In this document: positions 1 through 21,682 of the stretch, piece after piece
How the letters are laid out: every line of letters starts with the position of its first letter
Position numbering within the stretch: the first letter of the stretch is position 1
NCBI GenBank assembly: GCA_026394215.1
Contig: JAPKYR010000198.1
Span: 1-50,037, forward strand
Origin: a bacterium
GTDB lineage: Bacteria; JAJVIF01; JAPKYR01
Length of the DNA stretch: 50,037 nucleotides
Direction of reading: 5' to 3'
Translations under genes and position numbers: made by a program
Notes under the pieces: model-generated
Told to the model about the DNA's origin: nothing
What the model saw: the letters and a program-made list of their open reading frames with translations, nothing else
Database searches by the model: none

Positions 1-402
1 GGGATATTGATCGCCACCCTGCTTTCGGACAGTACTATAGGTGGTCCGGAAATCAACGATCCGCTGAATCCGGACGATCCGGGCGGAACGCAGCAGGGAG
101 GTTCCGATCCGCATATCGGCAATCCCTATGGAACCGGAGGAATAGATCCCGGAACGATTATCAATCTGGACGATACATATGGATGGGTGCTGGTTCCCGG
201 GACCACGGCGGAAGTCATAATGGTCGGGGATAGTAGCGATAACGAAGGCTACAAGGGATTTGAGATCGACCATGTCGGCTATGTTACGGGCACCGACGGA
301 ATCCTAGATTATGTGACCGACTATCAGGAACTCGCATATGGGCAGTATTACGACCGAACGTCGGAAGCTATGAACGCGTTCAGGTCGATTGGAATGGATT
401 AA
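1..402 (+). CDS. 3' end of a gene entering from upstream of the window. It is a paralog of the C-terminal part of the next gene (Gly/Asp/Pro-rich loop plus CUB-like tail). Putative pilus-associated adhesin.
   Basis: The frame is open from nt 1. The loop GGPEINDPLNPDDPGG...DPHIGNP mirrors GGPIINDPFGGGGDPNIGDP of ORF 420..2105. The tail VLVPGTTAEVIMVGDSSDNEGYKGFEIDHVGYV mirrors GDTIVIHFISNNANNTYDSGYRGFSLDRVEV of the same ORF. Confidence 0.5.
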   Translation, partial: GILIATLLSDSTIGGPEINDPLNPDDPGGTQQGGSDPHIGNPYGTGGIDPGTIINLDDTYGWVLVPGTTAEVIMVGDSSDNEGYKGFEIDHVGYVTGTDGILDYVTDYQELAYGQYYDRTSEAMNAFRSIGMD

Positions 403-419
403 AACAGGAATTCAAGGAA

Positions 420-2105
420 ATGAGAAAATTTCCAGCGACATATTCAATCATGCAAGACTTCAAGCAAGACTTTAAGAATAAACAGCTGTTGAGAAATCAG
501 CGCGGCTTGTCGTTACTAGAGGTCCTGTTGTCGTCTGTTGTCCTTGGGGTAGCGATAACGGGATTTCTTATGGCGCTTTCTACCGCAGCGACAACATCGA
601 CTATCGCGCGTAACGAGAGCGAGCTTGTTTATCTTGCAAGCCTGGAATTTGAAACGCTTCAGGGCGCCAGTTTCGAGGACCTTCCGTTTTTCCAGACGGA
701 TGTTCCGGGTAACATTCAGGAAGTACCGGATTATTTCAAGGACATCGCGATCAGCGAAGAAAACGGCGGGAACACGGTGGTCGGAGCGTCGGGAGACCTT
801 CAAACCGCCTATGATACATATTCGAGATATGCGGCTTTTGACGGTAAGCGCGCGAATTTCAACCAGGATGCCACTCCGACAAGGTGGATGGGCGATAAGA
901 ATCTTCTTGCGTGGGATGAAAATAGCGGCGGACCGATTATTAACGATCCGTTCGGCGGGGGCGGCGATCCGAATATCGGCGATCCGGGCGGCGGAGATCC
1001 GAATGGCGGAGATACCGGATTTGCTCCCGATGATTTCCAGTACCTTTTCTGCGCATTCCCGGAATTGACCACAATTTCCAGAATTCTGTATGATAACAGG
1101 TTCAATGTGTCGGAGAAGATGGGAGTCCCGACCGATCATATGGATTATCTCCCGCATCTGGACGACACATGGCAGAGGAATTTCGAGTTTTTCTTTTCCG
1201 ACAGGGTATTGAACTACGGCGATATCTACGACCCGTGGAAGCATGAAAATACTCCGATTTTATTTACAAAAGACCTTGGTTACGGTTCATCGGATATACA
1301 GGTAATTTTCGACAATGCCGTTGAGCCGCTTAAAGCGGGTATTATCGGGGTTGAAGGTATCGACACATATACCGATTTCGATCCTGCGTTCCATTATCCG
1401 TACGTGAGCGAGATCGAAGTTTATGGATTTAATAACGCGACGAATTATGTGGGGTTCTGGGAGACCCGGAGCGGGGAAATGCAGTTTGACAACGTAATCA
1501 TGTATTTTCCGAATTACCTCGATTCGGGATTCGACCTTGCGCGAAGGACTTATATCGACGCCGACAGTTTAGATGCATCGATACGCCAGAGGAAAAATCT
1601 GGTGCATGTCGAGATCGAGTTTTATTCGGCGACAAGTGAGACGAGAAATTCGCAGTGGCAGAGACTGACATGGTGGCAATCGGATGACAGCGAGCTGGCA
1701 AAGTTCAGCACAAGTTTTTACAGGGATGAGCCGACCAGGGTGGATCGTCTGCCGAACCTGAAAGATAAACCGGAACATGAAGTTTATGATAACGACGAAG
1801 ATTTACTTTTCCCGTACACTGTACCCGGCGCGTCTGAGATTCGCGGTCAGTTCGGCGATTTCGATCTGGAGCCGGGTCCTGGAACCGATTATATAACGGT
1901 CGAGGACGGAGATGGAAACGTCTACATGGGGCCCCTCGATGGGAGCACGGGTCTTAACGCATGGACGCCCTGGATTCCGGGAGACACGATCGTTATTCAT
2001 TTCATTTCCAACAACGCAAATAATACATACGATTCGGGATACAGGGGGTTTTCGCTGGATAGAGTGGAAGTCAAGTGGGTAGGGACAGGCGGCAGTACTC
2101 CATAA
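420..2105 (+). CDS. Large (561 aa) prepilin-type protein with a PilV-like class III signal and N-terminal helix, a Gly/Asp/Pro-rich loop and a CUB-like C-terminal module. Putative tip adhesin or minor pilin.
   Basis: The N-terminus ...LLRNQRG|LSLLEVLLSSVVLGVAITGFLMAL has Gly at -1, Glu at +5 and a hydrophobic helix. There is a GGPIINDPFGGGGDPNIGDPGGGDPNGGD loop. The C-terminus is DYITVEDGDGNVYMGPLDGS...GDTIVIHFISNNANNTYDSGYRGFSLDRVEV. Confidence 0.65.
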   Translation: MRKFPATYSIMQDFKQDFKNKQLLRNQRGLSLLEVLLSSVVLGVAITGFLMALSTAATTSTIARNESELVYLASLEFETLQGASFEDLPFFQTDVPGNIQEVPDYFKDIAISEENGGNTVVGASGDLQTAYDTYSRYAAFDGKRANFNQDATPTRWMGDKNLLAWDENSGGPIINDPFGGGGDPNIGDPGGGDPNGGDTGFAPDDFQYLFCAFPELTTISRILYDNRFNVSEKMGVPTDHMDYLPHLDDTWQRNFEFFFSDRVLNYGDIYDPWKHENTPILFTKDLGYGSSDIQVIFDNAVEPLKAGIIGVEGIDTYTDFDPAFHYPYVSEIEVYGFNNATNYVGFWETRSGEMQFDNVIMYFPNYLDSGFDLARRTYIDADSLDASIRQRKNLVHVEIEFYSATSETRNSQWQRLTWWQSDDSELAKFSTSFYRDEPTRVDRLPNLKDKPEHEVYDNDEDLLFPYTVPGASEIRGQFGDFDLEPGPGTDYITVEDGDGNVYMGPLDGSTGLNAWTPWIPGDTIVIHFISNNANNTYDSGYRGFSLDRVEVKWVGTGGSTP

Positions 2106-2117
2106 GCAGAGACACAG

Positions 2118-2774
2118 ATGGTGAACAGGTTTAAAATAAAGAGAAAATTGAGCGAGAAAGGGTTCACCCTGATCGAGGCTCTTGTTGTTGTCGCGCTGAC
2201 GACAATGATCTCTGTCGGGATAATCGCAGCGCTTCTCGAAGGTATGGACACGTTGCATACCATTACAGATACGCAGTCGGTCGAATTCGGACATCAGCGC
2301 GCGATGACGATGTTCACCGACGATGTTCAGGCTGCGAAATGGTTTTACAACGGGACCCAGACTCAGGGAGATGGATCGAATGTACCTCGCGATACTGTGG
2401 CGCCGTTTGAATTGACATTGGGATATCCCGGTTCCGGTGGAGATGAAATCTGGGTCAGATACTCGATTCAGTACGGCGCGTTCACCCGCGAAACGTATCT
2501 GCTGAGGACGGTTATGACGAAAAGCGGGCTGAATCAGGGCTCGACGATTGTTACATCGGGAGTCGCAAATCTGTTTTTTAATTATTTCGATGAAGGCGGA
2601 ACATTTACGGACAAAATCTCTGAGGTCTGGCGTATACAGATGGTTTTAAGCGTCAATTTCGGAGGCACGACGAAGCAGCGTGAGTATGATGTGTCGCTGA
2701 GGAATACGAATGAGGGGGTCGGGGTACCACCGGGAGATTTCGACGATTTTGAAACGCTTTATTTCAAGAAGTAA
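2118..2774 (+). CDS. Minor pilin, PilW/GspJ-like (218 aa).
   Basis: Prepilin motif ...LSEKG|FTLIEALVVVALTTMISVGIIAAL. Its size and position directly after the large prepilin-type gene also fit. It starts 12 nt after the previous stop. Confidence 0.65.
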   Translation: MVNRFKIKRKLSEKGFTLIEALVVVALTTMISVGIIAALLEGMDTLHTITDTQSVEFGHQRAMTMFTDDVQAAKWFYNGTQTQGDGSNVPRDTVAPFELTLGYPGSGGDEIWVRYSIQYGAFTRETYLLRTVMTKSGLNQGSTIVTSGVANLFFNYFDEGGTFTDKISEVWRIQMVLSVNFGGTTKQREYDVSLRNTNEGVGVPPGDFDDFETLYFKK

Positions 2775-2805
2775 GTTTTTAAAAAATCGAAGAAAGACAG
2801 AAATC

Positions 2806-3327
2806 ATGAAGTTTGAAGATTTAAATATTGAGCCTATCGTACTTCCCGAGAGGGAAAGCCAGACCGGATATACGCTTCTGGAGATCCTCGGCGTGACCGT
2901 GCTTGCGGTTATCGTTGTCATGATGGCGCAGGGGATGGTCTCGAGCTATAAGAAGTACTCGGTCGAGGAAATCGCGGTTCAAAGGCTGAAGGAACTTTCC
3001 AAATTCGAACACGAGTATCGATATCTTAACGACCCAACGGTGAATCCGACCAGGGTATACGGGACATTTTTCGATTTGCAGAATGCGGGAATGATATCCG
3101 ATGTATACTCGCAATCGGACGAGAGGCGGCATACTATCGATGCGTACGTCCCGAATTACCGCCTTGAGTTCATGAAGAGCGAGGAGGAATCGGACATTGA
3201 GCCGGACGCGTTTCAATACATGATCATGGCGATCCCGCTGTACAATTCGATGGGATTGAAAACGTTCTACGTACAGGAGGACGGCGAGGTTTATTTCCAG
3301 GATTTCATTTTTCTGCAGCCAAGATAG
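2806..3327 (+). CDS. Type IV pilin-like protein, paralog 1 of 12.
   Basis: I chose ATG 2806 inside ORF 2710..3327 because the upstream part overlaps the previous gene. Motif ...RESQTG|YTLLEILGVTVLAVIVVMMA, conserved helix RLKELSKFEHEY, tail MGLKTFYVQEDGEVY. Confidence 0.8.
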   Translation: MKFEDLNIEPIVLPERESQTGYTLLEILGVTVLAVIVVMMAQGMVSSYKKYSVEEIAVQRLKELSKFEHEYRYLNDPTVNPTRVYGTFFDLQNAGMISDVYSQSDERRHTIDAYVPNYRLEFMKSEEESDIEPDAFQYMIMAIPLYNSMGLKTFYVQEDGEVYFQDFIFLQPR

Positions 3328-3346
3328 GTCCGGAGGATAAATAACG

Positions 3347-3853
3347 TTGATGTTTGGATTAAGAATAAATACAAAACACAGCCAGGCAGGATACACGTTG
3401 ATGGAAGTCCTGATAGTCGCGACGATAATCGGGATCCTGCTGTCTGTCGGGACTGTACAATATCTTGAGGTCAAGCGCCGCGCGAAGGAAAAACTCGCGG
3501 TTTCGAGGCTTGCCCTGCTCGCGACATATGAGCGCATGTATCTAAGAACCTATGGGACCTATGGCGAATGGGACGATCTTCGCGAAGAGGGGTATATCGC
3601 GCAGGATTACAATTATCAGAACGATGATCTGACGCACTACGACCGTCCGGTTTATGTTCCGGAATACACGCTCGAATTTGCTCTCGATGATACCAACGGT
3701 GGATTCAGAATTACAGCGAAGCCGGTGCTTCAACAGGCGCATTTATGGTATCCAAGGTGGGTGATTCTGGGCGGAATTGATGATTTGAGAAGCGTTTATG
3801 TAGAAGAGGATGGAGTCGTGAGGTGGCTTGATTCGGATCGGGCGGTGTATTAG
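3347..3853 (+). CDS. Type IV pilin-like protein, paralog 2 of 12.
   Basis: ...KHSQAG|YTLMEVLIVATIIGILLSVG; tail LRSVYVEEDGVV. Confidence 0.8.
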   Translation: MMFGLRINTKHSQAGYTLMEVLIVATIIGILLSVGTVQYLEVKRRAKEKLAVSRLALLATYERMYLRTYGTYGEWDDLREEGYIAQDYNYQNDDLTHYDRPVYVPEYTLEFALDDTNGGFRITAKPVLQQAHLWYPRWVILGGIDDLRSVYVEEDGVVRWLDSDRAVY

Positions 3854-3869
3854 TTCAAGAGAAAAAGCG

Positions 3870-4388
3870 ATGCAAGAGACAGAGAAACAGAAGGGCTGGA
3901 CGTTAATCGAGATACTGTCAGTATGCTTTATGATCATGATCATTTTGTCATACGCGCTGCCGTCATATATGCAGGCGAGGAGAATTACATACGAGGACAA
4001 TGCAATCGGACGGCTCCAGAGGATTGCTTTCGCGGAGTCGAGATATTATAACGAGTATGGAAGATTTGGAAATTTTACGGAGCTGGTTGAAGCGTCGTAC
4101 ATTCCGAGAGGTTATTCGACCTACTTTGCATTCAGCAAAGACGCCATGTCGGAATCGAGTATTTTACCTTTCATCGACAGGTATTCGCTTTCATTCATGG
4201 TGCCGAATAACGTGAATTCGCTTTATTACAAGGTGGACGCGATACCGATCGGGTACAATAGAATGGGATTAAGGACATTTAACATAAATTTGTTTATCAC
4301 CGGATCGACCACCCCGGATAACATATTGCAGAATCCGCCCGTACGGGAGGGTCTGGAATCCAATGGAAAGATTGTAGTTGAATTTTAA
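3870..4388 (+). CDS. Type IV pilin-like protein, paralog 3 of 12.
   Basis: ATG 3870 inside ORF 3828..4388. MQETEKQKG|WTLIEILSVCFMIMIIL is the shortest leader of the set. Tail MGLRTFNINLF. Confidence 0.8.
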   Translation: MQETEKQKGWTLIEILSVCFMIMIILSYALPSYMQARRITYEDNAIGRLQRIAFAESRYYNEYGRFGNFTELVEASYIPRGYSTYFAFSKDAMSESSILPFIDRYSLSFMVPNNVNSLYYKVDAIPIGYNRMGLRTFNINLFITGSTTPDNILQNPPVREGLESNGKIVVEF

Positions 4389-4407
4389 GCTGTTTGAAGT
4401 GAAAAAA

Positions 4408-4926
4408 ATGGCAGAAGTACAGGATCACATTATGAATGAGTCGCCTGAAAACAGGAAGCCTGAGACGCCTGAAAAGCGTAAACGGGCCGGTTATACGATG
4501 GTCGAGATAATGCTCGCGGTTGGGATGATAGCGATTATTGCGACAATGGCGATTCCGAATCTTCAGCACGCGAGGCAGAACGGGCTTGAAACCGCCGCGA
4601 TACAGGGATTGAAAGAACTATCGGAAGCGGAAGAGATTTACTACGACACTTATGGATTTTACACGGACGGGCACGACCAGGTTCAGGATTTGAGAAGGGT
4701 CGATGCGATTGATTCCAAGGCCTATCATCGTTTGAGTCTCAGAAGGGGAGTATTTATAAAGGGATACTCTGTCCAGTTTTTGAACCTTGGGGAATTTCCC
4801 GAGAATTACTCGATTATCGCGTGGCCGCTCGAGCGCGGGATGGATCTCAAGACATTTATGGTCATCAGCGATGGCCTGGTAAGGGACTACGGGGAGGATC
4901 ATGAAGCTCCGGTAACAATTTATTGA
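4408..4926 (+). CDS. Type IV pilin-like protein, paralog 4 of 12.
   Basis: ATG 4408 (TTG 4378 is an alternative start). ...PEKRKRAG|YTMVEIMLAVGMIAIIATMAIPNL; tail MDLKTFMVISDGLV. Confidence 0.8.
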   Translation: MAEVQDHIMNESPENRKPETPEKRKRAGYTMVEIMLAVGMIAIIATMAIPNLQHARQNGLETAAIQGLKELSEAEEIYYDTYGFYTDGHDQVQDLRRVDAIDSKAYHRLSLRRGVFIKGYSVQFLNLGEFPENYSIIAWPLERGMDLKTFMVISDGLVRDYGEDHEAPVTIY

Positions 4927-4946
4927 AATCAGGCAATTGAAACAGG

Positions 4947-5489
4947 ATGAATGAAATGAGGATAAAAAAATACGGAAGCCAGAAAGGATTTACACTGCTC
5001 GAAGTTTTAGTGGTGGTCGGGATAATCGGGATTTTAACAGTCCTCGCGATTCCGGCCACGCGTAAGGTTGAGAAAGTGGTTATGGAAACCGGATGTATCA
5101 AAGGGCTTCACGTGATCCAGGAAGCGATGGAGATGTATTACCGCGAGACCGGATTCTACCCTGTCCATACTGAAGAGCCGTCGAGATTGTTCTTCCGCGA
5201 AATCGACAGGTATCTTCCGGAAACGTATTACATTCGCCACGCAGAGGATCAGTTTATTCGCGGCTACCGGCTTCTTGCCTACGGAATTCCACCGGAAGGC
5301 CATGGCGGGGAGACATCGACAGGCGGCGGCTTCGGAGGGTTTGGCGGGGGACCAAGCGTGGATCGATGGGGGAGCCATATGTACGTGCTGATGGCGATCC
5401 CGATTCAGAACCATCTGGGGCTGAGGACGTTTTACCTCGATCCAGGCGGAGTAGTAACGACGGACGAAGACAGACGGGAACCGTATTGA
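4947..5489 (+). CDS. Type IV pilin-like protein, paralog 5 of 12.
   Basis: ...YGSQKG|FTLLEVLVVVGIIGILTVLAIP; Gly-rich insert GGETSTGGGFGGFGGGP; tail LGLRTFYLDPGGVV. Confidence 0.85.
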   Translation: MNEMRIKKYGSQKGFTLLEVLVVVGIIGILTVLAIPATRKVEKVVMETGCIKGLHVIQEAMEMYYRETGFYPVHTEEPSRLFFREIDRYLPETYYIRHAEDQFIRGYRLLAYGIPPEGHGGETSTGGGFGGFGGGPSVDRWGSHMYVLMAIPIQNHLGLRTFYLDPGGVVTTDEDRREPY

Positions 5490-5524
5490 TAAATGTAAAT
5501 AAGTAATATTAGCGGAGAAACGCT

Positions 5525-6028
5525 ATGCAAGATGAAATGAAAGAAAAATACCTTGATGATGACACCGGAGAAAATGAAGAGAACTCCGAAGGCAGGGGGT
5601 TTACCCTGCTGGAAATTCTTCTCGTGGTTTCTATCATCACGGTAATAGTGGCGATGGCTCTTCCCCAGTTGAGCGGGGTTAAGAGGTCGGCTTACGAGCT
5701 TGGCGCGATGAAAGCATTAAACGCGCTCGGAACTGCGGAGCTGGCATACAGGAATGAATACAGGCATTTCACGTCGTTCGAAGGTCTCAGGATCAGGGGA
5801 TATGTAAATGAGAGGCTCAGGAAATTCGGGCCCACCGATCGTGAACGGATGGCGAAGCATTATTCTATTAATTACTACGTTATGGATACGTTCAAGAATT
5901 TCACGTACGGTTACCAGTTCATAGCGTTTCCCGATCGCGGTAATTCATATAACCTTCACACGTTCAGGATTTTGACCGACGGCACGGTCGAGCAGTCTAG
6001 CGACGGAGTTTACTGGGTGCCGCGCTGA
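5525..6028 (+). CDS. Type IV pilin-like protein, paralog 6 of 12.
   Basis: ...ENSEGRG|FTLLEILLVVSIITVIVAMALPQL; GGAG just upstream of the ATG; tail YNLHTFRILTDGTV. Confidence 0.85.
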   Translation: MQDEMKEKYLDDDTGENEENSEGRGFTLLEILLVVSIITVIVAMALPQLSGVKRSAYELGAMKALNALGTAELAYRNEYRHFTSFEGLRIRGYVNERLRKFGPTDRERMAKHYSINYYVMDTFKNFTYGYQFIAFPDRGNSYNLHTFRILTDGTVEQSSDGVYWVPR

Positions 6029-6081
6029 TCGTTGAAAGTTGAAGGCGGAACAGACAGGAAAAGTCGATTACAGGTGTAAAT

Positions 6082-6588
6082 ATGGATGAAGAAAAAAGAA
6101 ATCCGGAAGAACAAGAAAAGGAAAAGAAAAAAGACTCGGGCTTTACGCTGGTCGAGGTACTGACGGTTGCGCTGATAATCGCGATGATAGTAACGTTCGG
6201 ATTTGCGTCGTTCAGGAAATCCCGTCAGAGGGCGATTGAAACGCAGGGGATTCATGCGATGAAGGCGCTGGCGTCGGCGATGGAAGCGCATTTCAACGAT
6301 AATGGATTTTATCCTTTGACTTTCTCCGGGCTCCAGCCGACTTATGTAAATCCATACTATGTTTTGTCCGATTCGCCCACCAAGGAACGTTCGGTAGCCT
6401 TCGTCCAGGGATTCACCTGTTTCTGGTATGTTAATCCGCTTAATCCGCAGAGATATTCCATCAGGGCGAAGGGAATCTATCGGCATGACTGGACAATCAG
6501 CGACTGGCTCGAATTGAGAGTGACGGATCGCGGAGTGGTTGAGGGCAGACGATATTCCGCCGGGCGAAGCGAATTCCGTCCGTTGTAA
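6082..6588 (+). CDS. Type IV pilin-like protein, paralog 7 of 12.
   Basis: ...KEKKKDSG|FTLVEVLTVALIIAMIVTFGF; AGGTG upstream of the ATG; tail LELRVTDRGVV. Confidence 0.8.
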   Translation: MDEEKRNPEEQEKEKKKDSGFTLVEVLTVALIIAMIVTFGFASFRKSRQRAIETQGIHAMKALASAMEAHFNDNGFYPLTFSGLQPTYVNPYYVLSDSPTKERSVAFVQGFTCFWYVNPLNPQRYSIRAKGIYRHDWTISDWLELRVTDRGVVEGRRYSAGRSEFRPL

Positions 6589-6669
6589 GGCTGCAATATA
6601 AAAGAACGAAAGAGAATGTAATATAGAGATAGAAGAACAGATCCTGGCAGTACGGGTAGGTTAAAAAAA

Positions 6670-7167
6670 ATGAAATTGACCGAAATAAACACAGAACGCA
6701 GGAGAAAAACCGGAAGGGAAGCCGAAGCCGGTTTCACGCTGATAGAAATGGTCCTGGTGGCGACGCTGATCGCGATCCTGTCCACTATAGCGATAGCGAG
6801 CATGTCGCATGCCAGGTATAAGGCCATGGAATCCGGCGCGGCGCAGGCATTGAAGGCGATAGCCCAGGCTGAAGAGATGTACCTGATGGATAATGGAAAG
6901 TACACGTTCCATTTTTCATCGCTTGTGAACGTCTATCTTCCGCGGGCATACTCGGTGGGCGATCAATATAATGTTTTCGCCAAGAATTATTCGCTCTACT
7001 GGCTGTATTTCGGTCACGGGGGACCAAGACCGCCGATCGCGAATTATTCGGTGCTTGGATACACGGTATTCGCGATGCCTAACGACAGGAATCTGAAAAC
7101 ATTTGTAATCACGGATGACGGCGCAGTACAGGTAGCACATACATTGACAAACTGGTCGCCATATTGA
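6670..7167 (+). CDS. Type IV pilin-like protein, paralog 8 of 12.
   Basis: ...GREAEAG|FTLIEMVLVATLIAILSTIAIAS; tail RNLKTFVITDDGAV. Confidence 0.85.
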   Translation: MKLTEINTERRRKTGREAEAGFTLIEMVLVATLIAILSTIAIASMSHARYKAMESGAAQALKAIAQAEEMYLMDNGKYTFHFSSLVNVYLPRAYSVGDQYNVFAKNYSLYWLYFGHGGPRPPIANYSVLGYTVFAMPNDRNLKTFVITDDGAVQVAHTLTNWSPY

Positions 7168-7192: not shown

Positions 7193-7744
7193 ATGCTGAG
7201 ATTATTCATAAATAAACGGAAAAAACCAAGGGATTGGCGGCCCCGACGAGACCGCGAGTCCGGTTTCACTTTGGTCGAGGTGTTGACGGTCGCGTTTATC
7301 ATCGGGATACTTGCGACGATGGCGGTCGTCAGCATGAGGGGTGGCAAACGCGTGGCGTTCGAGACCAGGGCGATTGCCGCGGTGAAAAATATCGCCGAGA
7401 ACGAGACCATGTTCTATCAGAGGCATTACGGGTTCGGGACATGGAACGAGATGGAATACGAGGGCGACCTGATCGATCCGGGATATGCAAAAGTCGATGA
7501 TATGAATACGCCATACGATACGCCCATAGCAAATTTGTATTCGTGCGTGGTTATCGTGGTGAAACAAAGGCAGACATTCACCGCGGTTGCATATCCAAGG
7601 GCTAACTCGTTGTGGCACATGAGGACGTTTGCGGTTACAAGCGACGGGAGCATAATGAATTCGCAGGATCATGGATGGTTTTTCTCGCTTTTGTCGACAG
7701 TGCATCCGCTGCTCGATTCGGAGCTTGACCCGTTGCCTCATTAA
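7193..7744 (+). CDS. Type IV pilin-like protein, paralog 9 of 12.
   Basis: ...RRDRESG|FTLVEVLTVAFIIGILATMAVVS; tail WHMRTFAVTSDGSI. The equally long antisense ORF 7202..7741 has no such motif. Confidence 0.8.
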   Translation: MLRLFINKRKKPRDWRPRRDRESGFTLVEVLTVAFIIGILATMAVVSMRGGKRVAFETRAIAAVKNIAENETMFYQRHYGFGTWNEMEYEGDLIDPGYAKVDDMNTPYDTPIANLYSCVVIVVKQRQTFTAVAYPRANSLWHMRTFAVTSDGSIMNSQDHGWFFSLLSTVHPLLDSELDPLPH

Positions 7745-7876
7745 TGAAATATTGATTTGATAAAAAATGGACCGGAAGTAAAAATCGGTTCGTAAATATT
7801 TAAAGAAAATAAAAGCTGAAAAAGAGAAAAAGACCGGATACCCGGCGTGAAAACCGGGGTACGGAGGCTAATAAAG

Positions 7877-8314
7877 ATGATGAAACTCTTGAAATCAAGG
7901 GATAACGATACCCGGGGATTTACCCTGATCGAGGTACTGGTGGTGGCGAGCATTATCGGCATACTGGCCGCCATAGCGATTCCGTCCCTGGCGGGGTCCA
8001 AGAAAAGCGCGTATGAGGCGGCATGCCTTAAAGCGCTCAGGAGTATCACGGACGCCGAGGAGATGTTCTACCGTGATAATTACCAGTACACGTCGGACTG
8101 GGGGTCCCTGGATGATTACCTGCCATCGGCATATTCGGGCTGGGAGTACAAAGCGTATTTCATCCAGGGATACTCGATAGCGATGGTGACGTCGCAATCG
8201 TCCCAGAGGTATACATGCTGGGCGATACCGCAGGACGCGGGACGTTTGAGGCTTAATACGTTCGCGATTATGGACGACGCGATACCGCTGAACGCGGACT
8301 TTACGCCGAAATAA
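7877..8314 (+). CDS. Type IV pilin-like protein, paralog 10 of 12.
   Basis: ATG 7877 is preceded by GGAGG at 7863-7867 (GTG 7847 is an alternative start). ...RDNDTRG|FTLIEVLVVASIIGILAAIAIPSL; tail LRLNTFAIMDD. Confidence 0.85.
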   Translation: MMKLLKSRDNDTRGFTLIEVLVVASIIGILAAIAIPSLAGSKKSAYEAACLKALRSITDAEEMFYRDNYQYTSDWGSLDDYLPSAYSGWEYKAYFIQGYSIAMVTSQSSQRYTCWAIPQDAGRLRLNTFAIMDDAIPLNADFTPK

Positions 8315-8336: not shown

Positions 8337-8933
8337 ATGACTGACAGGTTAAGAAAACTGGAAAAAGCGCAGAAGGGATACTCCCTTATCGAGATGCTGA
8401 TAGTCACCGCGATGATTGTGATCATGGCTACAATTCCGGTTGCGCTTCTGAGGAAAAGCCGCGAGAAGGTGTTTGAGCTGGACGCGCTAAGGGCGTTGCG
8501 CACGGTGGCGGTTGCATACGAAAATTATTATTCAACACACGATTTTCAATATCCGAACTATCAATCCAGCGGGGCGGTTACGGAAAACAACCAGTTCCAT
8601 AATCCGGAAGCGATCTGGGCCATGCTTAACAGGGAAAATTTGCTCCCTGGAATGTACTCGGGTTTTTACTATGACCGGAAAGACCTGATGGCGCGAGGGT
8701 ATCGATTTTCGATTTTCCCGTCGGATTTCGGGGACAATGTGGAAGCCGGCGCGAAGAATTCGTATGCGTTCGCGATGATCGCGTACGATGGGGGCGTGGG
8801 TCAACGGGACCTTGTAATGGTTCACGGGATGAGGTCTTTCACTACATACCCGACGGCGATTCCGAGGGCAATGGGCGGGATGAACTTAATCAGTACGACA
8901 ATTTTTGCTATGCCGAATCAGTCGGACAGGTAA
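8337..8933 (+). CDS. Type IV pilin-like protein, paralog 11 of 12.
   Basis: ...LEKAQKG|YSLIEMLIVTAMIVIMATIPV; tail HGMRSFTTYP. Confidence 0.8.
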   Translation: MTDRLRKLEKAQKGYSLIEMLIVTAMIVIMATIPVALLRKSREKVFELDALRALRTVAVAYENYYSTHDFQYPNYQSSGAVTENNQFHNPEAIWAMLNRENLLPGMYSGFYYDRKDLMARGYRFSIFPSDFGDNVEAGAKNSYAFAMIAYDGGVGQRDLVMVHGMRSFTTYPTAIPRAMGGMNLISTTIFAMPNQSDR

Positions 8934-8962: not shown

Positions 8963-9541
8963 TTGATAAAGAAAAAAGGGAACAGCCTATGGTGGCGACG
9001 GGTAGCCGGGTACACAATGGTCGAACTTATGACCGTGTCCGCGATAATTTCTATCCTGGCCGCTATTTCGTTCGCGCTGATATCCCGCATGAGGAGCCAG
9101 GCGATCGAGAGCAAGGCGGTCGCGACTCTGAATGTTGTAGCGACCGGATACGAGATGTACTTCAATCGTTTCAGGGAGTACCCGCAATGGGGGCCGGAGA
9201 GCAGATTCGAAACGCCCCGCGCCTTGTGGAATTTTCTTGCAGAGCAGGAATACATACCGAGGTCATACGTGAATACCCAGTATGACAGCGGGTCGGGATA
9301 TATATTTGGTGTAGCTGAAGATTACGCGATGGAGATACCGATGTACGATTCAACGGATAATACGACGGATCAGAAGTATTCATATTTTGTAGTATTTCAT
9401 CCGTTTAATCTTCAAAGGGATTCGCTCGCAGTAGGGATAAATCCGCCGACAGGGTGGGTGGCGGCGCGTCCGAGAAAGGGGAGCACGAACGGGAATTACA
9501 GATTTTTCAGACTTTACATACCACACCGCGGCGGGGCATGA
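8963..9541 (+). CDS. Type IV pilin-like protein, paralog 12 of 12 (most divergent C-terminus).
   Basis: TTG start. ...WWRRVAG|YTMVELMTVSAIISILAAISFALI; conserved helix ATLNVVATGYEMYFN. Confidence 0.75.
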   Translation: MIKKKGNSLWWRRVAGYTMVELMTVSAIISILAAISFALISRMRSQAIESKAVATLNVVATGYEMYFNRFREYPQWGPESRFETPRALWNFLAEQEYIPRSYVNTQYDSGSGYIFGVAEDYAMEIPMYDSTDNTTDQKYSYFVVFHPFNLQRDSLAVGINPPTGWVAARPRKGSTNGNYRFFRLYIPHRGGA

Positions 9542-9684
9542 GAATAGGGTCGCCTTGATGCGGAGTAATGGGGATAAAGATGGATGTAGGCTCTCAGAGA
9601 CAGACGGATGACAGAAACATACGGAACCGCGGAACCAGTAACAACATTATTGAAATACACCGGGATGGCATTAAGCCAACCAGC

Positions 9685-9713
9685 TTGACTTGTATTTATT
9701 ATTATAGTATTGT
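9685..9713 (+). promoter_or_regulatory. Candidate sigma70-type promoter upstream of pilM.
   Basis: TTGACT (9685-9690), a 17-nt A/T-rich spacer, then TATTGT (9708-9713). It lies inside the 303-nt non-coding gap between the last pilin and pilM. Confidence 0.3.
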
Positions 9714-9844
9714 GCCGTCGAGTGGAGCGGGGCATTGTTGGTCGGTGTGCCGTTTTACATGAAACAGGGTTGAATGTTTTTTATTTTTTGCTGACGAAAG
9801 CCTTGGTCCGATGGACCTGTAAGCTGCGAAAACGAGGATAACTG

Positions 9845-11762: not shown

Positions 11763-12638
11763 GTGAATCCATACGCAAAAATAGCAATCAAGATTGGAAT
11801 AGTGATTGTAATATGCCTGGTTATCATGACCGGTTACCGGGCAATCTGGCATAAGAGTTTTACCGCCAAGCTTGTAAAAGCCAATAAAGATATCGCTGCA
11901 GGCAGGGTAATTGAGGAATCGGTTGATTCGTTGCTGGCATACAACCATCTCCTTCCGCAGATCAGGCAGGTGCAGCTCCAGGATATGCAGACAATTCGAA
12001 ACCTGATCCCGGATGCCGGCGATTTCGTGCTGACCAGTTACCTGAGAAGGATTCATACCCTTATTTCGGATAACCATCTGGAAACCAATGGGATCACGAT
12101 ACGGTCTTCCGCGGCTCTTGGCGGGACAACTTTCGATGAGGCGTTCGCGCAGGATCCAACCAGGCTGATTTCCGACCTGGCGTCATTTACAGGCGCTCTC
12201 GATAATTTTGAGCAGCGGGAAAGCGAGATGAATAATCTGCTGGTCAGTTTCCAGTTCTATAATGCTATTTCGTCAGGATCTGAGAATTTTGCCGCGATCG
12301 CAGGCGGTATCGAAACGCATACATTCAACCTTTCGGTGCGCGGTCCTTATAAAGATATAAAGAAATTTACGTTTGAAGTATTCAATATGAGGCCATTGAC
12401 GGCGCTCACGAATTTCCAGATGTCTCCCCAGGGAGTAGGAATCGGCCCAACGCGCCAGTATGTCGCAAGCTTCAAGCTGGTAACCTATGGCGACGCTAAT
12501 GGCCAGCCTCCGCTTTGGGATGCTTACAGACATGGGCTTATCGGTGGAGCGGATATTACTCTCGCGTCGGATGCAGGCGTTACAGATGAAAGTACCGCAA
12601 GTGAAAGCGGCACGGATGAAAGTGGGAGTGATGGCTGA
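11763..12638 (+). CDS. pilO: PilO-like bitopic inner-membrane pilus alignment protein.
   Basis: The GTG start abuts the pilN stop. It has one TM helix (IAIKIGIVIVICLVIMTGY) followed by a periplasmic domain. The call rests on position and topology, not on a recognised motif. Confidence 0.5.
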   Translation: MNPYAKIAIKIGIVIVICLVIMTGYRAIWHKSFTAKLVKANKDIAAGRVIEESVDSLLAYNHLLPQIRQVQLQDMQTIRNLIPDAGDFVLTSYLRRIHTLISDNHLETNGITIRSSAALGGTTFDEAFAQDPTRLISDLASFTGALDNFEQRESEMNNLLVSFQFYNAISSGSENFAAIAGGIETHTFNLSVRGPYKDIKKFTFEVFNMRPLTALTNFQMSPQGVGIGPTRQYVASFKLVTYGDANGQPPLWDAYRHGLIGGADITLASDAGVTDESTASESGTDESGSDG

Positions 12639-12690: not shown

Positions 12691-13206
12691 GTGAGAAAGA
12701 TGATGAAGCACAATGACAGAAAACCGGATTATGGAGAAAGGGCGAAAAAGCTCGCGCCATATGCCGTGATTATTCTGGTATTGACGGTGGGAGTTATTCT
12801 TGTTATCCCTCAGTTTGGCGCAGTCAGACCGGTTCAGGCACAGGTGAATCTGGGACAGGTCGGAAACGTGGTAACCGAAACAGTCGGCGAAGCCGCGTCC
12901 GAGACAGCCGGAGAATATGCCCAGACGCAAAATGAAATTGAAAACCCGACACCGCAGCCTGCCGAGAATCAGGAAGAAACAGCACCGTCAGAAATCCCTG
13001 CGACTGAGCCTGTCGCGGTAAATGCTGAAGAAGTAGAACTTAGCGAAGAAGAAGCCCAGGCGATGAGGGAGCAGTTTTATACGTCGTCCGAAGGAATAAG
13101 CGGAAAGCACTTCACGGAACTAAGCGATCCTGAAATCCGCCAGAGCCTGGATGAGGCCTCCATTTCCAAACACAGAAGTATACGGGGTGCCGTCTGGAGA
13201 GAATAA
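12691..13206 (+). CDS. PilP-like protein, N-terminal part (membrane anchor plus Glu/Pro-rich linker). Probably one gene with 13151..13483.
   Basis: TM helix LAPYAVIILVLTVGVILVIPQF followed by an acidic linker. The frame ends inside a 56-nt overlap with the next ORF. Confidence 0.45.
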   Translation: MRKMMKHNDRKPDYGERAKKLAPYAVIILVLTVGVILVIPQFGAVRPVQAQVNLGQVGNVVTETVGEAASETAGEYAQTQNEIENPTPQPAENQEETAPSEIPATEPVAVNAEEVELSEEEAQAMREQFYTSSEGISGKHFTELSDPEIRQSLDEASISKHRSIRGAVWRE

Positions 13207-13483
13207 GGGACCCGATATTACAGCGGAGATGGTCGCGCAGGTGCTCAGGTTGAAAGGTGTACTGGCAGATGGCAACGATTATATCGCGATTATCCTTATT
13301 TTAAACCAGGAAAAAAGATTGAGGGTTGGGGATGAAGTATTTAACAGCGGCCAGCGAAGTTATATTATAACAGAAATTGATATGAGTTCAGTAAAAATAC
13401 AGGCGGCGGACAACAGTGCGGATGTTGGTGTCATACATTTCGGAGCCCGCGCGCAGATCCAGAATTTTTCGATTTCGTATTGA
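13151..13483 (+). CDS. PilP-like protein, C-terminal beta-domain part.
   Basis: RPPFPN... then LKGVLADGNDYIAIILILNQEKRLRVGDEVFNSGQRSYIITEIDMSSVKIQ, which fits the small PilP/GspC-HR beta-domain pattern. There is no signal or anchor of its own and no obvious Shine-Dalgarno before ATG 13151. Confidence 0.45.
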   Translation: MRPPFPNTEVYGVPSGENKGPDITAEMVAQVLRLKGVLADGNDYIAIILILNQEKRLRVGDEVFNSGQRSYIITEIDMSSVKIQAADNSADVGVIHFGARAQIQNFSISY

Positions 13484-18642: not shown

Positions 18643-18686
18643 AAGAAACTAAGTATATTATTTTGAAATCCTGACTCGACATCGAG

Positions 18687-19265
18687 GTGCAAAAAGTGAA
18701 ATATCAGATAGCAATTTTCGCACTCTTAATAATATTGATACCGTTGTTGACGGGTTGCGAACTTAAACCGGAAGATCATTGGCCGGTGTTAACTGCGGAA
18801 ACAGTCAGCGCAGATTTTACAATTAATGTAACTCTGATTGAAGAACTTGGTATCATTCAGTTTCAGGTGGCGAATGATCATGCTGACCTGGATTTGGATA
18901 TCAGGTCGTACAATGCAAATCAGGGTTGGGATGTGAAAGTGATCCTTCAGAGTATCGACAAGTATTCCACAAATTGGGCCATTCCAACATCGCCGACGTC
19001 ATATGGTGAGTCGCTCCCGATGGATCCAAGCACGACTCGCTTTGAAAATATAATTGGCGAGTATATTGATGGGAAACCGCCGCAAGGTACCTCGCGAATA
19101 AAATTTTCGGTATACCCGGGATGGTTCCCGACCACGTTTGAAGACTGGGTTCAGGGATCGACAATAACAGACTCGTACGTTTACAATTACATGGTAATTA
19201 TAGAAGATATGGATGGCCGGACAGATTCATGGGAGTTCAGCATATCCAGTACTCTGGCTATGTAA
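18687..19265 (+). CDS. Lipoprotein of unknown function immediately downstream of pilQ.
   Basis: GTG start. Signal peptide with lipobox IPLLTG|C. Confidence 0.6.
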   Translation: MQKVKYQIAIFALLIILIPLLTGCELKPEDHWPVLTAETVSADFTINVTLIEELGIIQFQVANDHADLDLDIRSYNANQGWDVKVILQSIDKYSTNWAIPTSPTSYGESLPMDPSTTRFENIIGEYIDGKPPQGTSRIKFSVYPGWFPTTFEDWVQGSTITDSYVYNYMVIIEDMDGRTDSWEFSISSTLAM

Positions 19266-19337
19266 ATTTCCATGAATAAGTTAGATGCCGGACATATAGA
19301 AGTCAGCTTAAAAAAATAGCAGAGGAGATTATTCCCG

Positions 19338-20633
19338 ATGCGATATTCCTTATACCTAGCAATAATCGCCGTGATGTTGTCGCTGATACTTGCGCCACAG
19401 GCGATTGCAGATCAAAGCAAAGACGGCTTTGAGCCTCCTGAAAGAACCGGTCCAGTCGAGAGACCGGTCGAAATCCCTGCCGAGATTGAAGAAAGTCCGG
19501 TGGTGGAAAGTCCCCAATCCAGTGAAATTATTGAGCCCCAGGAATGCGAAAAACTGGAACCCGTTGAAGAAGAATGTCCCCCGGAAGCTACACCTCCGGA
19601 GATAGAAATGAGCTGGTTCAGCAGGCCATGGGATTTCTGGCGGCATATGGACGAGAGATCGCTCGATTACGATGCGATACAATATATGGGTAATGTCCGT
19701 AGGATCGCGATATTACCGTTCGACGATCTGACCACCCCGACAATAGCAGGCCAGACCAAGCTTCAAGAGGCCGGCGGACCGCGACGTCTGGTAGACAACC
19801 TTGCTGCGGAGTTTATGAGATGGGGTTATCTGGTTGTTCCGCCGTCGGATGCCGAAGCCTATCTCAATACATTTATCCAGGGCGATAGCTACCGTCGGGT
19901 GGATTCCGAAGGGAACAATCTGTTCTGGTTCCAGAACATGCCTGATAGGGCAATGAATTTCTATGCAACAAGCGTTCCAGGATTAGCGGAACAGAGAATG
20001 GATAATAACCAGACTAATATATGGTTGTCGCGCGAAGATATCATCTACATCGCTCAAACTCTGGAAGCCGACTGTGTTGTCCGTGGGTTCGTGAATGAAT
20101 ATGCGGTAAGCAGGGATATAGACGCCGACTGGCGCACATTCATCCCGCCGTTTCTCGGGCTCCTTAATCCCGATCGGCGCGTGACAATGGAAGTCGCGTA
20201 TTATCTTTATGATGGCGCGTCGGGAGAATTAATCTGGAACGGGACTGTAGATATCCAGAACGATGCCAACTGGCCGATGTTTACGTCGGATGCTGAACTG
20301 ATCGAGCAAACTGAAGGAGATATGGCCGGACAGGTTACCGGGCATGTGCTTCCGCAATGGATGGATATTGCCATGTGCCATCCGGACTGGGTACCTTTCC
20401 CGATGTGGCAAGAGGGTTTCGACGGATGTATGGGGGGTATGGGTATGGGTATGGGACGACCCGAAGAGCGCCCCGACTGGGTTAACCCGTATCGAATGGG
20501 CTGGCACAATGAGTATTTACGAGACGATGCGAAGGTTGATATTGAGCCGGTTGAGAATCCTCCCGCCAGACCATGGTTCCGCGACCTTGATCGAAGCTAC
20601 AATGGGATTCGGCTGTATCTTGGGGAGAAGTAA
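19338..20633 (+). CDS. Secreted protein of unknown function (431 aa).
   Basis: Signal peptide ...LAPQAIA|DQS and a Pro/Glu-rich linker. The RRIAILPFDDLT segment resembles the start of CsgG/LpoB/DUF799-type periplasmic folds. GGMGMGMG tract near the C-terminus. Confidence 0.5.
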   Translation: MRYSLYLAIIAVMLSLILAPQAIADQSKDGFEPPERTGPVERPVEIPAEIEESPVVESPQSSEIIEPQECEKLEPVEEECPPEATPPEIEMSWFSRPWDFWRHMDERSLDYDAIQYMGNVRRIAILPFDDLTTPTIAGQTKLQEAGGPRRLVDNLAAEFMRWGYLVVPPSDAEAYLNTFIQGDSYRRVDSEGNNLFWFQNMPDRAMNFYATSVPGLAEQRMDNNQTNIWLSREDIIYIAQTLEADCVVRGFVNEYAVSRDIDADWRTFIPPFLGLLNPDRRVTMEVAYYLYDGASGELIWNGTVDIQNDANWPMFTSDAELIEQTEGDMAGQVTGHVLPQWMDIAMCHPDWVPFPMWQEGFDGCMGGMGMGMGRPEERPDWVNPYRMGWHNEYLRDDAKVDIEPVENPPARPWFRDLDRSYNGIRLYLGEK

Positions 20634-20649
20634 ATTCATCGAATATAGT

Positions 20650-20682
20650 TAATTTTGCACCCCCGGGCGTATTTCTCCGGGG
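20650..20682 (+). terminator. Rho-independent terminator-like hairpin.
   Basis: CCCCCGG (20650-20656) pairs with CCGGGGG (20667-20673) around a 10-nt loop, followed by ATTTTATTA. Confidence 0.6.
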
Positions 20683-20710
20683 GATTTTATTATAATTACG
20701 CTGAAAACCG

Positions 20711-21682
20711 ATGCCATCACAGGAACAGGAACAAACAGCTGTCGAGCTCTTAAAGAATCTTATAGGGCGGATGCTTGAAACCGGTGCGAGCGACCTTCAC
20801 TTGCAGGAGGGAGAGCGTCCATTTCTAAGGCTGGTCGCCGGGCTTATCCCGCAATCCGATCTTGAGCCGGTCAGCCGTGAGATGCTCGATGGGGGCCTCG
20901 CGCTTAGTTTCAGGGCGATCCCTGCTAATCCGCCGAGTTTTCATGAGCTCGCCCTGCCTTCCGCGGTGCGTCGATTCGCGAATCTGAAAAGAGGGCTGGT
21001 AATTATCTGCGGACCGACGGGATGCGGGAAGTCCACAACCGCAGCGGCGATCATACATCAGATAAATTCATCGCGCCGGGCGCATATTATCACTATCGAG
21101 GATCCAGTAGAATTCGTCCATAAATCTAAGACAAGTCTTGTGGCACAGAGGGAAGTGGGTCAGCACACCATATCCTTCGCGGACGCGCTTAGAGAAGGCC
21201 TTAGAGAAGACCCAGACGTCCTTCTGGTGGGCGAGATGCGCGATATGGAGACAATCGAGCTTGCGCTTCGCGCAGCCGAGACGGGACACCTTGTTTTTTC
21301 GACCTTGCACACATCGGGCGCAACGGGAAGTATATCGCGAATTATCGACGCGTTTGAGACGGGGGCGAGATCGGTAATCCGTATGCAGTTATCGCTTGTC
21401 CTGATGGGGGTCGTGAGTCAGATTCTTGTCCCGACCAGGGACGGGAAACGTCGTGTGCCGATTTGCGAAATAATGATCCCCAACGATGCCGTCAGGCATC
21501 TTATCAGGGAAAACAAGCTGGAACAGGTATCGAACGTTATTCAATCAGGAACTGAGGAAGGCATGCTGAGTTTCGCGGCTCATATCGCAGAACTTACAAA
21601 AGCGGGCGTGATCGATGCCGCCGGCGGGCTTGAGGCGGTCGGCGAGGGCTGGCGTATCGCGGAGATTTTATTCGGGAGCTGA
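20711..21682 (+). CDS. pilT: PilT-like type IV pilus retraction ATPase (323 aa) with a shortened N-terminal domain.
   Basis: GASDLHL, Walker A GPTGCGKST, ITIEDPVEF, Walker B DVLLVGEMRD, GHLVFSTLHT, and C-terminal AVRHLIRENK (PilT AIRNLIRE-type signature). Confidence 0.85.
   Translation: MPSQEQEQTAVELLKNLIGRMLETGASDLHLQEGERPFLRLVAGLIPQSDLEPVSREMLDGGLALSFRAIPANPPSFHELALPSAVRRFANLKRGLVIICGPTGCGKSTTAAAIIHQINSSRRAHIITIEDPVEFVHKSKTSLVAQREVGQHTISFADALREGLREDPDVLLVGEMRDMETIELALRAAETGHLVFSTLHTSGATGSISRIIDAFETGARSVIRMQLSLVLMGVVSQILVPTRDGKRRVPICEIMIPNDAVRHLIRENKLEQVSNVIQSGTEEGMLSFAAHIAELTKAGVIDAAGGLEAVGEGWRIAEILFGS

Follow-up and report, generated by a model that had tools for sequence, protein, structure and literature searches.

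The window analysed here, of 50,037 nucleotides, is the whole of contig JAPKYR010000198.1 (assembly GCA_026394215.1), which leaves no room for extension upstream; its first part carries a type IV filament locus. Positions 1-21682 comprise 24 open reading frames (ORFs), which lie on the + strand throughout and are separated in the ORF table by short or overlapping junctions, in agreement with the co-directional 21.7-kb cluster delineated in a first-pass annotation made from the sequence alone. The cluster opens with the truncated tail of a prepilin-like protein of ~870 aa and continues through a 561-aa prepilin, a 218-aa prepilin and 12 small prepilins (p1-p12, 145-198 aa) into the genes for PilM, PilN and PilO, a disrupted PilP-like gene, a 1677-aa PilQ secretin, a lipoprotein, a FlgT-like secreted protein and PilT (Table 1). 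We consider it likely that these genes specify the filament of a clade-specific type IVa pilus (T4aP) machine together with its envelope-spanning parts.

Core machinery and its distribution

The type IV filament assignment made at first pass held up in our searches and can be narrowed to the type IVa kind, as PilM, PilQ and PilT were each recognised both by profile hidden Markov models (HMMs) and by sequence searches of the PDB. In addition to its Pfam match, PilM matches TIGR01175 (E 1.3e-37) at 129.6 bits, just under the 133-bit cut-off, and finds its best solved match in Thermus PilM (2ych, E 1.4e-29), with Myxococcus xanthus PilM second. The secretin domain of PilQ (PF00263, residues 1495-1651) was detected at E 6.7e-37, together with weak STN, N0 and Secretin_N matches. 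The best NCBIfam match of this protein is TIGR02515 PilQ, at 146 bits against a cut-off of 284, with GspD at 132 bits, and the best PDB match of the secretin core is PilQ from Pseudomonas aeruginosa, the PilQ proteins of Vibrio and Myxococcus being matched as well. Finally, the ATPase at the end of the cluster scores above the curated PilT cut-off (Table 1), and an intact orthologue has Aquifex PilT as its best PDB match (2ewv, E 5.5e-85), alongside the PilT proteins of Geobacter and Pseudomonas.

The genes that follow pilM encode PilN-like and PilO-like bitopic inner-membrane proteins. Taken alone, the two window proteins gave no significant HMM match; among their orthologues, Pfam PilN was found in seven of seven (best E 7.8e-5) and PilO in four of five (best E 0.0036), all of them under the gathering scores. 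We hold these two identities, which were assigned from sequence, with moderate confidence. The next gene is called PilP-like on the basis of its position between PilO and PilQ, an N-terminal transmembrane (TM) segment and a C-terminal beta-rich domain.

In the window this PilP-like gene is split by a frameshifting deletion of ~206 nt (around 13100-13210), and PilT has lost 40 aa from its N-terminal domain through a clean, in-frame deletion of 120 nt (window 20885-20895). Both lesions had first been listed among the traits of the system. They are, however, private to this contig: PilP and PilT are intact in the four relatives that were compared in full (L002, L003, L019 and L020), in which the PilP-like protein measures 329-337 aa, an intact PilP-like protein of 305 aa is also present in the deep-branch locus L021, and PilT orthologues have 350-364 aa. 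Neither deletion is therefore a feature of the system. The closest sister contig, whose PilM is 95% identical, ends inside pilO, short of the PilP-like gene. Exact-protein look-ups gave no match for the 561-aa ORF or PilT and led to a single contig of 1.3 kb for the 218-aa protein, and a near-identical fragment is present in SRR20698647. The two deletions may represent early decay in this strain or errors of metagenome assembly, and since the PilP-like gene is frameshifted and PilT lacks 40 residues, this copy of the locus may be defective, or the contig misassembled.

We then asked how widely the locus is distributed. It is present in only 11 of 185,579 GTDB species genomes, four of which are labelled Planctomycetota and the rest just 'bacterium'; assemblies that carry it include GCA_030614715.1, GCA_964354375.1 and those with the prefixes CBDU*, DAOVJF and JAGGVT. 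PilM sequences from the clade form ~49 clusters at 90% identity and score 316-859 bits, after which the next relatives drop to 103 bits, a level at which the named sequences are Armatimonadetes, actinobacterial and Patescibacteria PilM. For the secretin, 16 full-length relatives were recovered (1475-1763 aa), and a protein search with the 561-aa prepilin returned 42 relatives. When 1.84 billion cluster representatives were scanned with HMMER, ~5 contained the full-length 561-aa family, the remaining matches covering the C-terminal CUB-like module or the pilin helix alone. Furthermore, the unusual traits described below are kept across ~50 related metagenomic loci. These distributions bear out the proposal that the locus is a lineage-specific variant and, judged by such sequence comparisons, the machine is confined to a small group of uncultured bacteria, some genomes of which carry the label Planctomycetota. 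A search of the literature found no earlier description of a locus of this type.

The prepilin set

All 14 complete prepilins carry a class III signal, G(-1)...E(+5), a motif with no further occurrence in the rest of the 50 kb. Thirteen of the 15 prepilin ORFs give a Pfam N_methyl match, which for the 561-aa prepilin (20.3 bits) and p6 (20.6 bits) lies just under the gathering score of 21.2 bits. The long leaders remarked on at first pass are real, spanning ~9-25 aa according to which start codon is assumed. Type IVa pilin leaders are shorter, typically 5-7 aa.

By best-hit mapping, each of p1-p12 has a single counterpart in every locus that covers the whole array, always in the same order, and this holds even where the big prepilin is just 30-35% identical. 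Within the window the 12 paralogues are 21-45% identical to one another. The small-pilin array is thus an ancient fixed set and not the product of recent amplification. The 218-aa prepilin likewise has one-to-one orthologues in all related loci, and the large number of pilin paralogues that had been singled out in the window is conserved clade-wide, as a set of 15 prepilins in fixed order. Searches of p1-p12 against the NCBIfam models for GspH, GspI, GspJ and GspK, for FimU, and for PilV, PilW and PilX returned generic N-terminal-helix matches only. NCBIfam matched the 218-aa prepilin to GspJ and HpsC, weakly and at the N-terminus only (E 0.001-0.003), and the profile of its orthologues matched pilin N-terminal helices in the PDB and nothing else. 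The PilW/GspJ-like label that this protein had been given is backed only by such weak N-terminal-helix matches (E ~0.003).

The best candidate for the major pilin is p10, on account of its family scores, its structural matches, its conservation and its leader. It has the top N_methyl score of the set (35.8 bits) and the strongest match to the N-terminus of GspG (4.1e-11), and the profile of its orthologues matches Geobacter PilA (2e-14), Thermus PilA4 (1.3e-10) and Myxococcus PilA (2.6e-8) in the PDB. It is also the small paralogue most conserved between branches, at 55% versus 36-47%. In addition, p10 is preceded by the longest spacer within the pilin array. A hairpin lies just 5' of a conserved CGGAGG in this spacer in 12 of 12 orthologous leaders examined, with stem sequences that vary by branch and with no clear covariation signal in an alignment-based test. 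This hairpin may serve as an mRNA stabiliser or processing site that raises expression of p10.

Two giant prepilins precede the array. The 133-aa tail with which the contig begins is 77% identical to the C-terminus of an 871-aa protein in a related locus (L004). The N-terminus of this ~870-aa family reads ERGxVLIxVL, and the Glu at +5 is missing in 11 of 11 orthologues. Among pseudopilins, loss of Glu5 is typical of GspK and PilX. Comparisons of the ~870-aa protein with GspK revealed no Pfam, PDB or tblastn similarity. It had been described as an upstream paralogue of the 561-aa prepilin, which is right as far as a prepilin-type N-terminus and a CUB-like C-terminal module are concerned, the latter linked weakly by hhalign (E 3.6e-4, probability 37%); nothing else is shared between the two.

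The 561-aa prepilin itself was modelled with AlphaFold2 (AF2; mean predicted local distance difference test, pLDDT, of 70) as a helix at residues 32-82 followed by beta domains. Foldseek related these domains to CBM32, F5/8 type C and fucolectin folds (4zy9, template-modelling score TMt 0.76), and to CUB, namely MASP-1 CUB2 (TMt 0.56-0.58, root-mean-square deviation 3.3-3.5, 24% identity over 100 aa). Pfam CUB has no match in this protein. The CUB-like module initially noted on a prepilin is thus supported at the level of the fold, and is conserved; the CBM32, F5/8 type C and fucolectin matches lead us to add a predicted lectin-like domain to the protein. The full-length architecture is confined to this clade, and on the basis of the model we regard the 561-aa prepilin as a candidate tip adhesin.

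As a separate observation, the CUB-like module (profile ~434-530) recurs 2-14 times in many large metagenomic proteins of up to 4,807 aa, and it is apparently an uncurated repeat family.

Secretin, partners and genomic neighbourhood

Self-comparison of the secretin revealed internal repeats. In an AF2 model of residues 1-1200, these take the form of seven beta modules of ~110 aa, at 42-147, 169-280, 327-443, 523-634, 695-807, 865-975 and 1088-1200 (block pLDDT mostly 70-92), joined by Pro/Glu-rich linkers of 20-110 aa that are modelled with low confidence. Module 1 matches Pfam AMIN (PF11741, residues 51-128) at E 2.7e-8 and 34.3 bits, above the cut-off of 20.5. Comparison by hhalign yields two groups, one of modules M2, M3 and M7 (90-96% probability) and one of M4, M5 and M6 (100%). 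A Foldseek search with the whole 1,200-aa model returned, at a probability of 0.99-1.00, the AMIN region of M. xanthus PilQ as the top match, together with E. coli AmiC and Neisseria PilQ B2 and 4av2_A. The first-pass annotation had counted about seven AMIN-like modules; the seven beta modules are real, and module 1 alone passes the Pfam AMIN model.

The multi-module secretin is conserved in the clade, with seven modules in the window and its two closest relatives, six in 14 other relatives and at least five in the deep branch. Module 5 (window 15661-16083), present only in the three seven-module sequences, arose by a recent M4/M6-type duplication (44-62% identity), so that module number is still in flux among these bacteria. 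The number of AMIN domains in characterised PilQ proteins is zero to three; these domains bind peptidoglycan and determine where the machine is placed, and none occur in the secretins of type II secretion systems (T2SS) (PMC10653833).

The additional length had initially been taken to indicate a very tall, envelope-spanning secretin. This view is not supported: the extra ~1,200 residues form separate beta modules that are joined by the linkers just described, and the core made up of N0, N1 and the secretin domain has an ordinary size. Because the linkers are of low confidence and the core is of normal length, the extra length is best read, on the model, as a flexible string of wall-binding-type modules and not as a taller channel.

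Two further proteins are encoded between the secretin and PilT. The 192-aa lipoprotein has no family match in Pfam or NCBIfam and, being encoded right after the secretin in all five relatives named above, is a candidate pilotin or secretin partner. Its 431-aa neighbour is FlgT-like, with FlgT_M matching five of five orthologues (best E 3.3e-5) below the gathering score; a sequence-profile search of the PDB brought no identification, and LysM was found neither in this protein (E <= 0.01) nor in five orthologues. TsaP, the peptidoglycan-binding protein that forms the ring around the secretin in T4aP, combines a LysM domain with FlgT-like domains and resembles the C-domain of FlgT (bioRxiv 10.1101/2020.05.29.123786), whereas the match in the 431-aa family is to the FlgT middle domain. 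We regard the 431-aa protein as a candidate secretin-associated periplasmic ring, TsaP-like in role, which in the absence of a LysM match should not be filed as TsaP.

A strongly conserved sigma-70-like promoter and short leader lie upstream of pilM, in the ~300-nt gap that follows p12 (Table 1). The same layout was found in eight loci: CTTGACTTG, ~12 nt, ATAGTATTGT, and then a leader of ~70 nt that ends in a hairpin and a T-run. CTTGACTTG and TAGTATTGT vary little or not at all among eight distinct loci, and the promoter scan scored TATTGT as the -10-like element. A generic promoter/terminator scan does find this site, but overall the scan is not enriched over shuffles. The consensus fold of the leader is weak, and a search of the whole window with Rfam returned no family at the gathering threshold. 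The leader could be an attenuator or riboswitch-like element for pilMNOPQ, or a small RNA gene.

In the related loci, the 5' part of the gene order consists of a UbiA-family gene, a gene for a ~490-aa 8-TM protein, a gap, and prepilins of ~870, ~550 and ~220 aa. The 12 small prepilins come next, followed after a ~300-nt gap by PilM, PilN, PilO, the ~330-aa PilP-like protein and the secretin, and the 3' part is made up of the ~190-aa lipoprotein, the ~360-440-aa FlgT-like protein, PilT and a glycosyltransferase. Context upstream of the window start was taken from three of these loci (L004, L006 and L007). The UbiA-family prenyltransferase and the ~490-aa protein, which has ~8 TM segments and no Pfam match, always lie 5' of the pilin operon in the relatives. 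Their pairing recalls the synthesis of a lipid-linked sugar donor together with a GT-C-type transferase, as in the arabinosylation of P. aeruginosa pilin by TfpW, and by this analogy the two may point to pilin glycosylation.

Downstream of PilT, a GT1-family glycosyltransferase and a convergent gene for a 432-aa HExxH-motif protein are present in the window and also 3' of PilT in L002, L003, L019 and L020; both may be part of the pilus system. From 21.8 to 50 kb the window is occupied by housekeeping genes: the glycosyltransferase, aroE, aroC, a TPR protein, a histidine kinase, YmdB, def, cdaA-ybbR-glmM, alr, a methylase-endonuclease fusion and HepT. Several of these genes merit mention in their own right. 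The cdaA (DAC domain), ybbR and glmM genes (39172-44982) follow an arrangement that is classical for Firmicutes and noteworthy in genomes labelled Planctomycetota; in the window the group is broken up by the methylase-endonuclease gene and a small opposite-strand ORF. The methylase-endonuclease ORF (41878-43389, - strand, 503 aa) combines N6/N4 DNA methylase and Mrr-type endonuclease domains (PF01555 with PF04471/PF22722), and looks like a type IIG-like or defence-related fusion. A gene for a HepT-like RNase toxin (48516-49140, + strand; PF01934, E 6e-32) has an overlapping 99-aa ORF in front of it, and the two are probably a HepT/MntA toxin-antitoxin pair. Finally, two large predicted lipoproteins or secreted proteins, of 989 aa (28525-31494, - strand) and 522 aa (34023-35591, + strand), have no Pfam match.

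Table 1. Coordinates of the pilus locus and adjoining features (window positions unless a related locus is named; / within a motif marks the cleavage point)
Feature	Position	Strand	Evidence or remark
UbiA-family gene and ~490-aa gene, pair	L004 4405-6887; L006 4403-6872; L007 4389-6853		upstream of window start
~870-aa prepilin-like protein, 133-aa C-terminal tail	1..402	+	contig starts within gene
561-aa prepilin	420..2105	+	RG/LSLLE signal; N_methyl E 3.9e-4
218-aa prepilin, minor-pilin-like	2118..2774	+	N_methyl E 2e-5
p1	2806..3327	+	TG/YTLLE motif; mechanical ORF from 2710, Met33 start fits 168-188-aa orthologues; orthologue in same place in every locus
p2	3347..3853	+	N_methyl E 9.9e-7; motif; conserved order
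p3	3870..4388	+	KG/WTLIE motif; ORF from 3828; conserved order
p4	4408..4926	+	N_methyl E 8.2e-5; ORF from 4378; conserved order
p5	4947..5489	+	N_methyl E 4e-7; conserved order
p6	5525..6028	+	N_methyl E 3.2e-4; GspG N-terminus E 2e-7; conserved order
p7	6082..6588	+	N_methyl E 2.2e-5; conserved order
p8	6670..7167	+	N_methyl E 1.3e-4; conserved order
p9	7193..7744	+	N_methyl E 2.7e-7; conserved order
p10 5' leader	7830..7876	+	hairpin, then CGGAGG ribosome-binding site
p10 (145 aa)	7877..8314	+	best major-pilin candidate; ORF from 7847
p11	8337..8933	+	N_methyl E 1.1e-4; conserved order
p12	8963..9541	+	N_methyl E 6e-6; conserved order
Sigma-70-like promoter and short leader upstream of pilM	9684..9795	+	TTGACT, 17 nt, -10-like element within conserved ATAGTATTGT
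PilM, actin-like cytoplasmic ATPase-fold protein	9845..11071	+	PF11104 E 1.1e-19 (above cut-off)
PilN-like bitopic inner-membrane protein	11064..11762	+	one TM segment, 17-44; 8-nt overlap with pilM
PilO-like bitopic inner-membrane protein	11763..12638	+	N-terminal TM segment
PilP-like gene, broken into two ORFs	12691..13483 (12691-13206, 13151-13483)	+	position between PilO and PilQ
PilQ-type secretin, 1677 aa	13609..18642	+	seven ~110-aa beta modules, N0, N1, secretin core
192-aa lipoprotein	18687..19265	+	lipobox LLTG/C; right after secretin in L002, L003, L019, L020 and L021
431-aa secreted FlgT-like protein	19338..20633	+	signal peptide
PilT retraction ATPase	20711..21682	+	TIGR01420 347.6 bits, above 319.1 cut-off; PilT/PilU family
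GT1-family glycosyltransferase	21819-23012	+	Glyco_trans_1_4 E 2.7e-5, 24.9 bits, below 27-bit cut-off
432-aa HExxH-motif protein	23015-24313	-	LPHEIGHN motif, zinc-protease-like; no Pfam match; convergent

Proposed mechanism, alternatives and known systems

What sets the locus apart throughout the clade is its invariant array of 15 prepilins, the predicted lectin-like and CUB-like domains that some of them carry, a secretin with six or seven beta modules, at least one of them an AMIN domain, and a FlgT-like partner that lacks LysM. The first-pass annotation had suggested a distinct, uncharacterised flavour of type IV pilus machinery, which these peculiarities support in part; the core is that of an ordinary T4aP. 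In the mechanism we favour, a prepilin peptidase, assumed to be encoded elsewhere, would cleave the class III leaders, and a PilB/PilC extension motor and platform, again assumed to be encoded elsewhere, would polymerise one small pilin, most likely p10. The ~870-aa prepilin without Glu5, the 561-aa prepilin and the 218-aa prepilin would form a priming or tip complex, displaying CBM32/discoidin-like and CUB-like domains for binding, probably of glycans, and the other 11 small pilins would act as low-abundance minor subunits with non-redundant roles. The fibre would exit via the ordinary-sized PilQ channel, and the six or seven flexibly tethered beta modules of PilQ, at least one of them a true AMIN domain, would tether the secretin to peptidoglycan and fix its position there. 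The roles of pilotin and periplasmic ring would fall to the lipoprotein and the FlgT-like protein, respectively, and PilT would retract the fibre.

Several observations weigh against this reading. The cues that point to p10 as the major pilin are all indirect, and Pro22, a residue that marks major pilins, is present in p3-p6 as well. A profile search of the PDB did not establish the 218-aa protein as a GspJ or PilW, and neither the window PilP-like protein nor its orthologues gave a Pfam or PDB match. When the secretin modules were searched in isolation with Pfam AMIN, module 2 reached E 0.19 and modules 3-7 gave no match; the hhalign links between module groups are weak (0.2-38%), and the Foldseek search, run on the whole model, does not assign each module singly. 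PilT is adjacent in the shallow branch only, as the deep-branch locus L021 has a polysaccharide deacetylase after the FlgT-like gene, in PilT's place. Lastly, the 10-kb flanks of the cluster in the related loci contained no pilB, pilC or pilD.

With respect to the last point, Pfam searches of every large ORF in the other 28 kb of the window also found no pilB, pilC or pilD, and tblastn with E. coli HofB, HofC, GspE, GspF and GspO against 419 kb (the window plus related loci) recovered PilT alone, through GspE and HofB. The absence reported at first pass is thus confirmed, but its interpretation as a non-canonical parts list is not. Such genes are often unlinked, as in P. aeruginosa, where pilB, pilC and pilD lie apart from pilMNOPQ, and our searches covered the neighbourhoods of the locus. 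Their absence near it is therefore uninformative.

An alternative is that the 12 small pilins are combined in one heteropolymeric fibre or, as raised in the first-pass annotation, serve as alternative major subunits from which several fibres are built. That there are twelve ancient paralogues, each under purifying selection and in fixed order clade-wide, would fit this idea, as would the major-pilin-type N-terminal helices with Pro22 of p3-p6 and p10 and the presence of both the Thermus PilA4 and PilA5 fibres among the PDB matches of the p10 profile. Thermus makes wide PilA4 and narrow PilA5 pili from one machine. However, the conserved leader hairpin and a perfect GGAGG occur together at p10 only, p10 is the paralogue closest to major pilins, and characterised T4aP carry many conserved minor pilins without forming heteropolymers. 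We consider a filament of this kind improbable, and we would give similarly low odds to its fullest version, in which most or all of the small pilins would be structural subunits of a complex filament, capped by the giant lectin/CUB prepilins and fastened in the wall through a secretin whose count of peptidoglycan-binding-like modules would be a record, an organisation new to the literature.

It is also conceivable, although we think it less likely again, that the locus encodes a secretion-type pseudopilus, similar to a T2SS or to cyanobacterial Hps, in which a short piston would push polysaccharide or protein cargo through the secretin. The N-termini of the small pilins do match GspG, and the 218-aa protein has its weak HpsC and GspJ matches, but all of these are limited to the common N-terminal helix. 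Glycan-related genes lie nearby (the GT1 gene downstream, the deacetylase after the deep-branch locus, and the UbiA-family gene with its ~8-TM partner upstream), yet tblastn with E. coli queries against the same 419 kb found no homologues of GspE, GspF, GspC, GspL or GspM, and PilM and PilN stand in place of GspL. The ATPase belongs to the PilT/PilU family, above the curated cut-off, and the secretin scores higher as PilQ than as GspD, has PilQ proteins as its best PDB matches and carries AMIN modules of a kind that T2SS secretins lack (PMC10653833). That the locus is a decaying, non-functional remnant whose oddities have no functional meaning is very unlikely indeed, for although the window copy bears the two deletions in PilP and PilT, all its other 22 genes are intact, both affected genes are intact in the relatives compared above, the architecture is conserved over ~50 loci under clear purifying selection, and both deletions could equally be artefacts of metagenome assembly.

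The finding is a descriptive one, made in uncultured organisms, and it neither overturns the T4aP model nor resolves a long-standing question. If the small pilins are non-redundant, the locus would offer a test case for how many distinct subunits a type IV filament uses, and also for the role of AMIN-repeat number in envelope anchoring, a question made more pointed by the unusual envelope that these bacteria would have if they are indeed Planctomycetota.

Among known systems, the pilus-like gene cluster Amuc_1098-1102 of Akkermansia includes PilQ-like and PilM-like proteins (PMC4960237). Provided that the clade is rightly labelled Planctomycetota, it belongs with Akkermansia to one superphylum (PVC), although a comparable pilin array or AMIN repeats are not known from the Akkermansia cluster. 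Window proteins matched Amuc_1101_fam (E 1.4e-9) at 37 bits and Amuc_1098_fam (E 6.6e-11) at 41 bits, far below the respective cut-offs of 650 and 750 bits. The T4aP of P. aeruginosa, whose pilMNOPQ, fimU-pilVWXY1E, pilBCD and pilTU genes are at separate loci, provides the best PDB match to the secretin core. It differs in carrying two AMIN domains on PilQ, in using a non-pilin protein, PilY1, as tip adhesin, in the number of minor pilins (five against 14 here) and in its short leaders.

The competence/twitching pilus of Thermus thermophilus is similar in that its PilM is the best solved match to the PilM described here, PilA4 is among the best matches of p10, and several pilin paralogues are present. 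Its ComZ, a pilin-like protein of ~550 aa with a large beta insertion at the tip, is analogous to the 561-aa prepilin. Unlike the locus in the window, Thermus has far fewer pilins, and the 561-aa protein is predicted to be CBM32-like and CUB-like and not a beta-solenoid. The Thermus secretin, moreover, is lengthened by stacked N-domain rings and not by AMIN repeats.

The T4aP of M. xanthus (PilMNOPQ, TsaP, Tgl and PilBCT; 3jc8/3jc9) shares with the locus the gene order PilM, PilN, PilO, PilP (a PilP-like gene here) and PilQ, a secretin with several N-terminal modules that are AMIN domains or resemble them, a FlgT-like partner, a lipoprotein partner and PilT. M. xanthus PilQ has three AMIN domains (PMC10653833), compared with six or seven modules here, most of which are too diverged for Pfam. 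The FlgT-like protein of the clade differs in having no LysM, and pilB, pilC and pilD lie outside the cluster here. M. xanthus combines a major pilin with sets of four minor pilins and PilY1, as opposed to the 12 small and three larger prepilins of the present locus. More generally, characterised type IVa systems use one major pilin and four or five core minor pilins, whereas in this clade the order of 15 prepilins has stayed fixed despite deep divergence, and predicted lectin-like and CUB-like domains are fused directly to prepilins.

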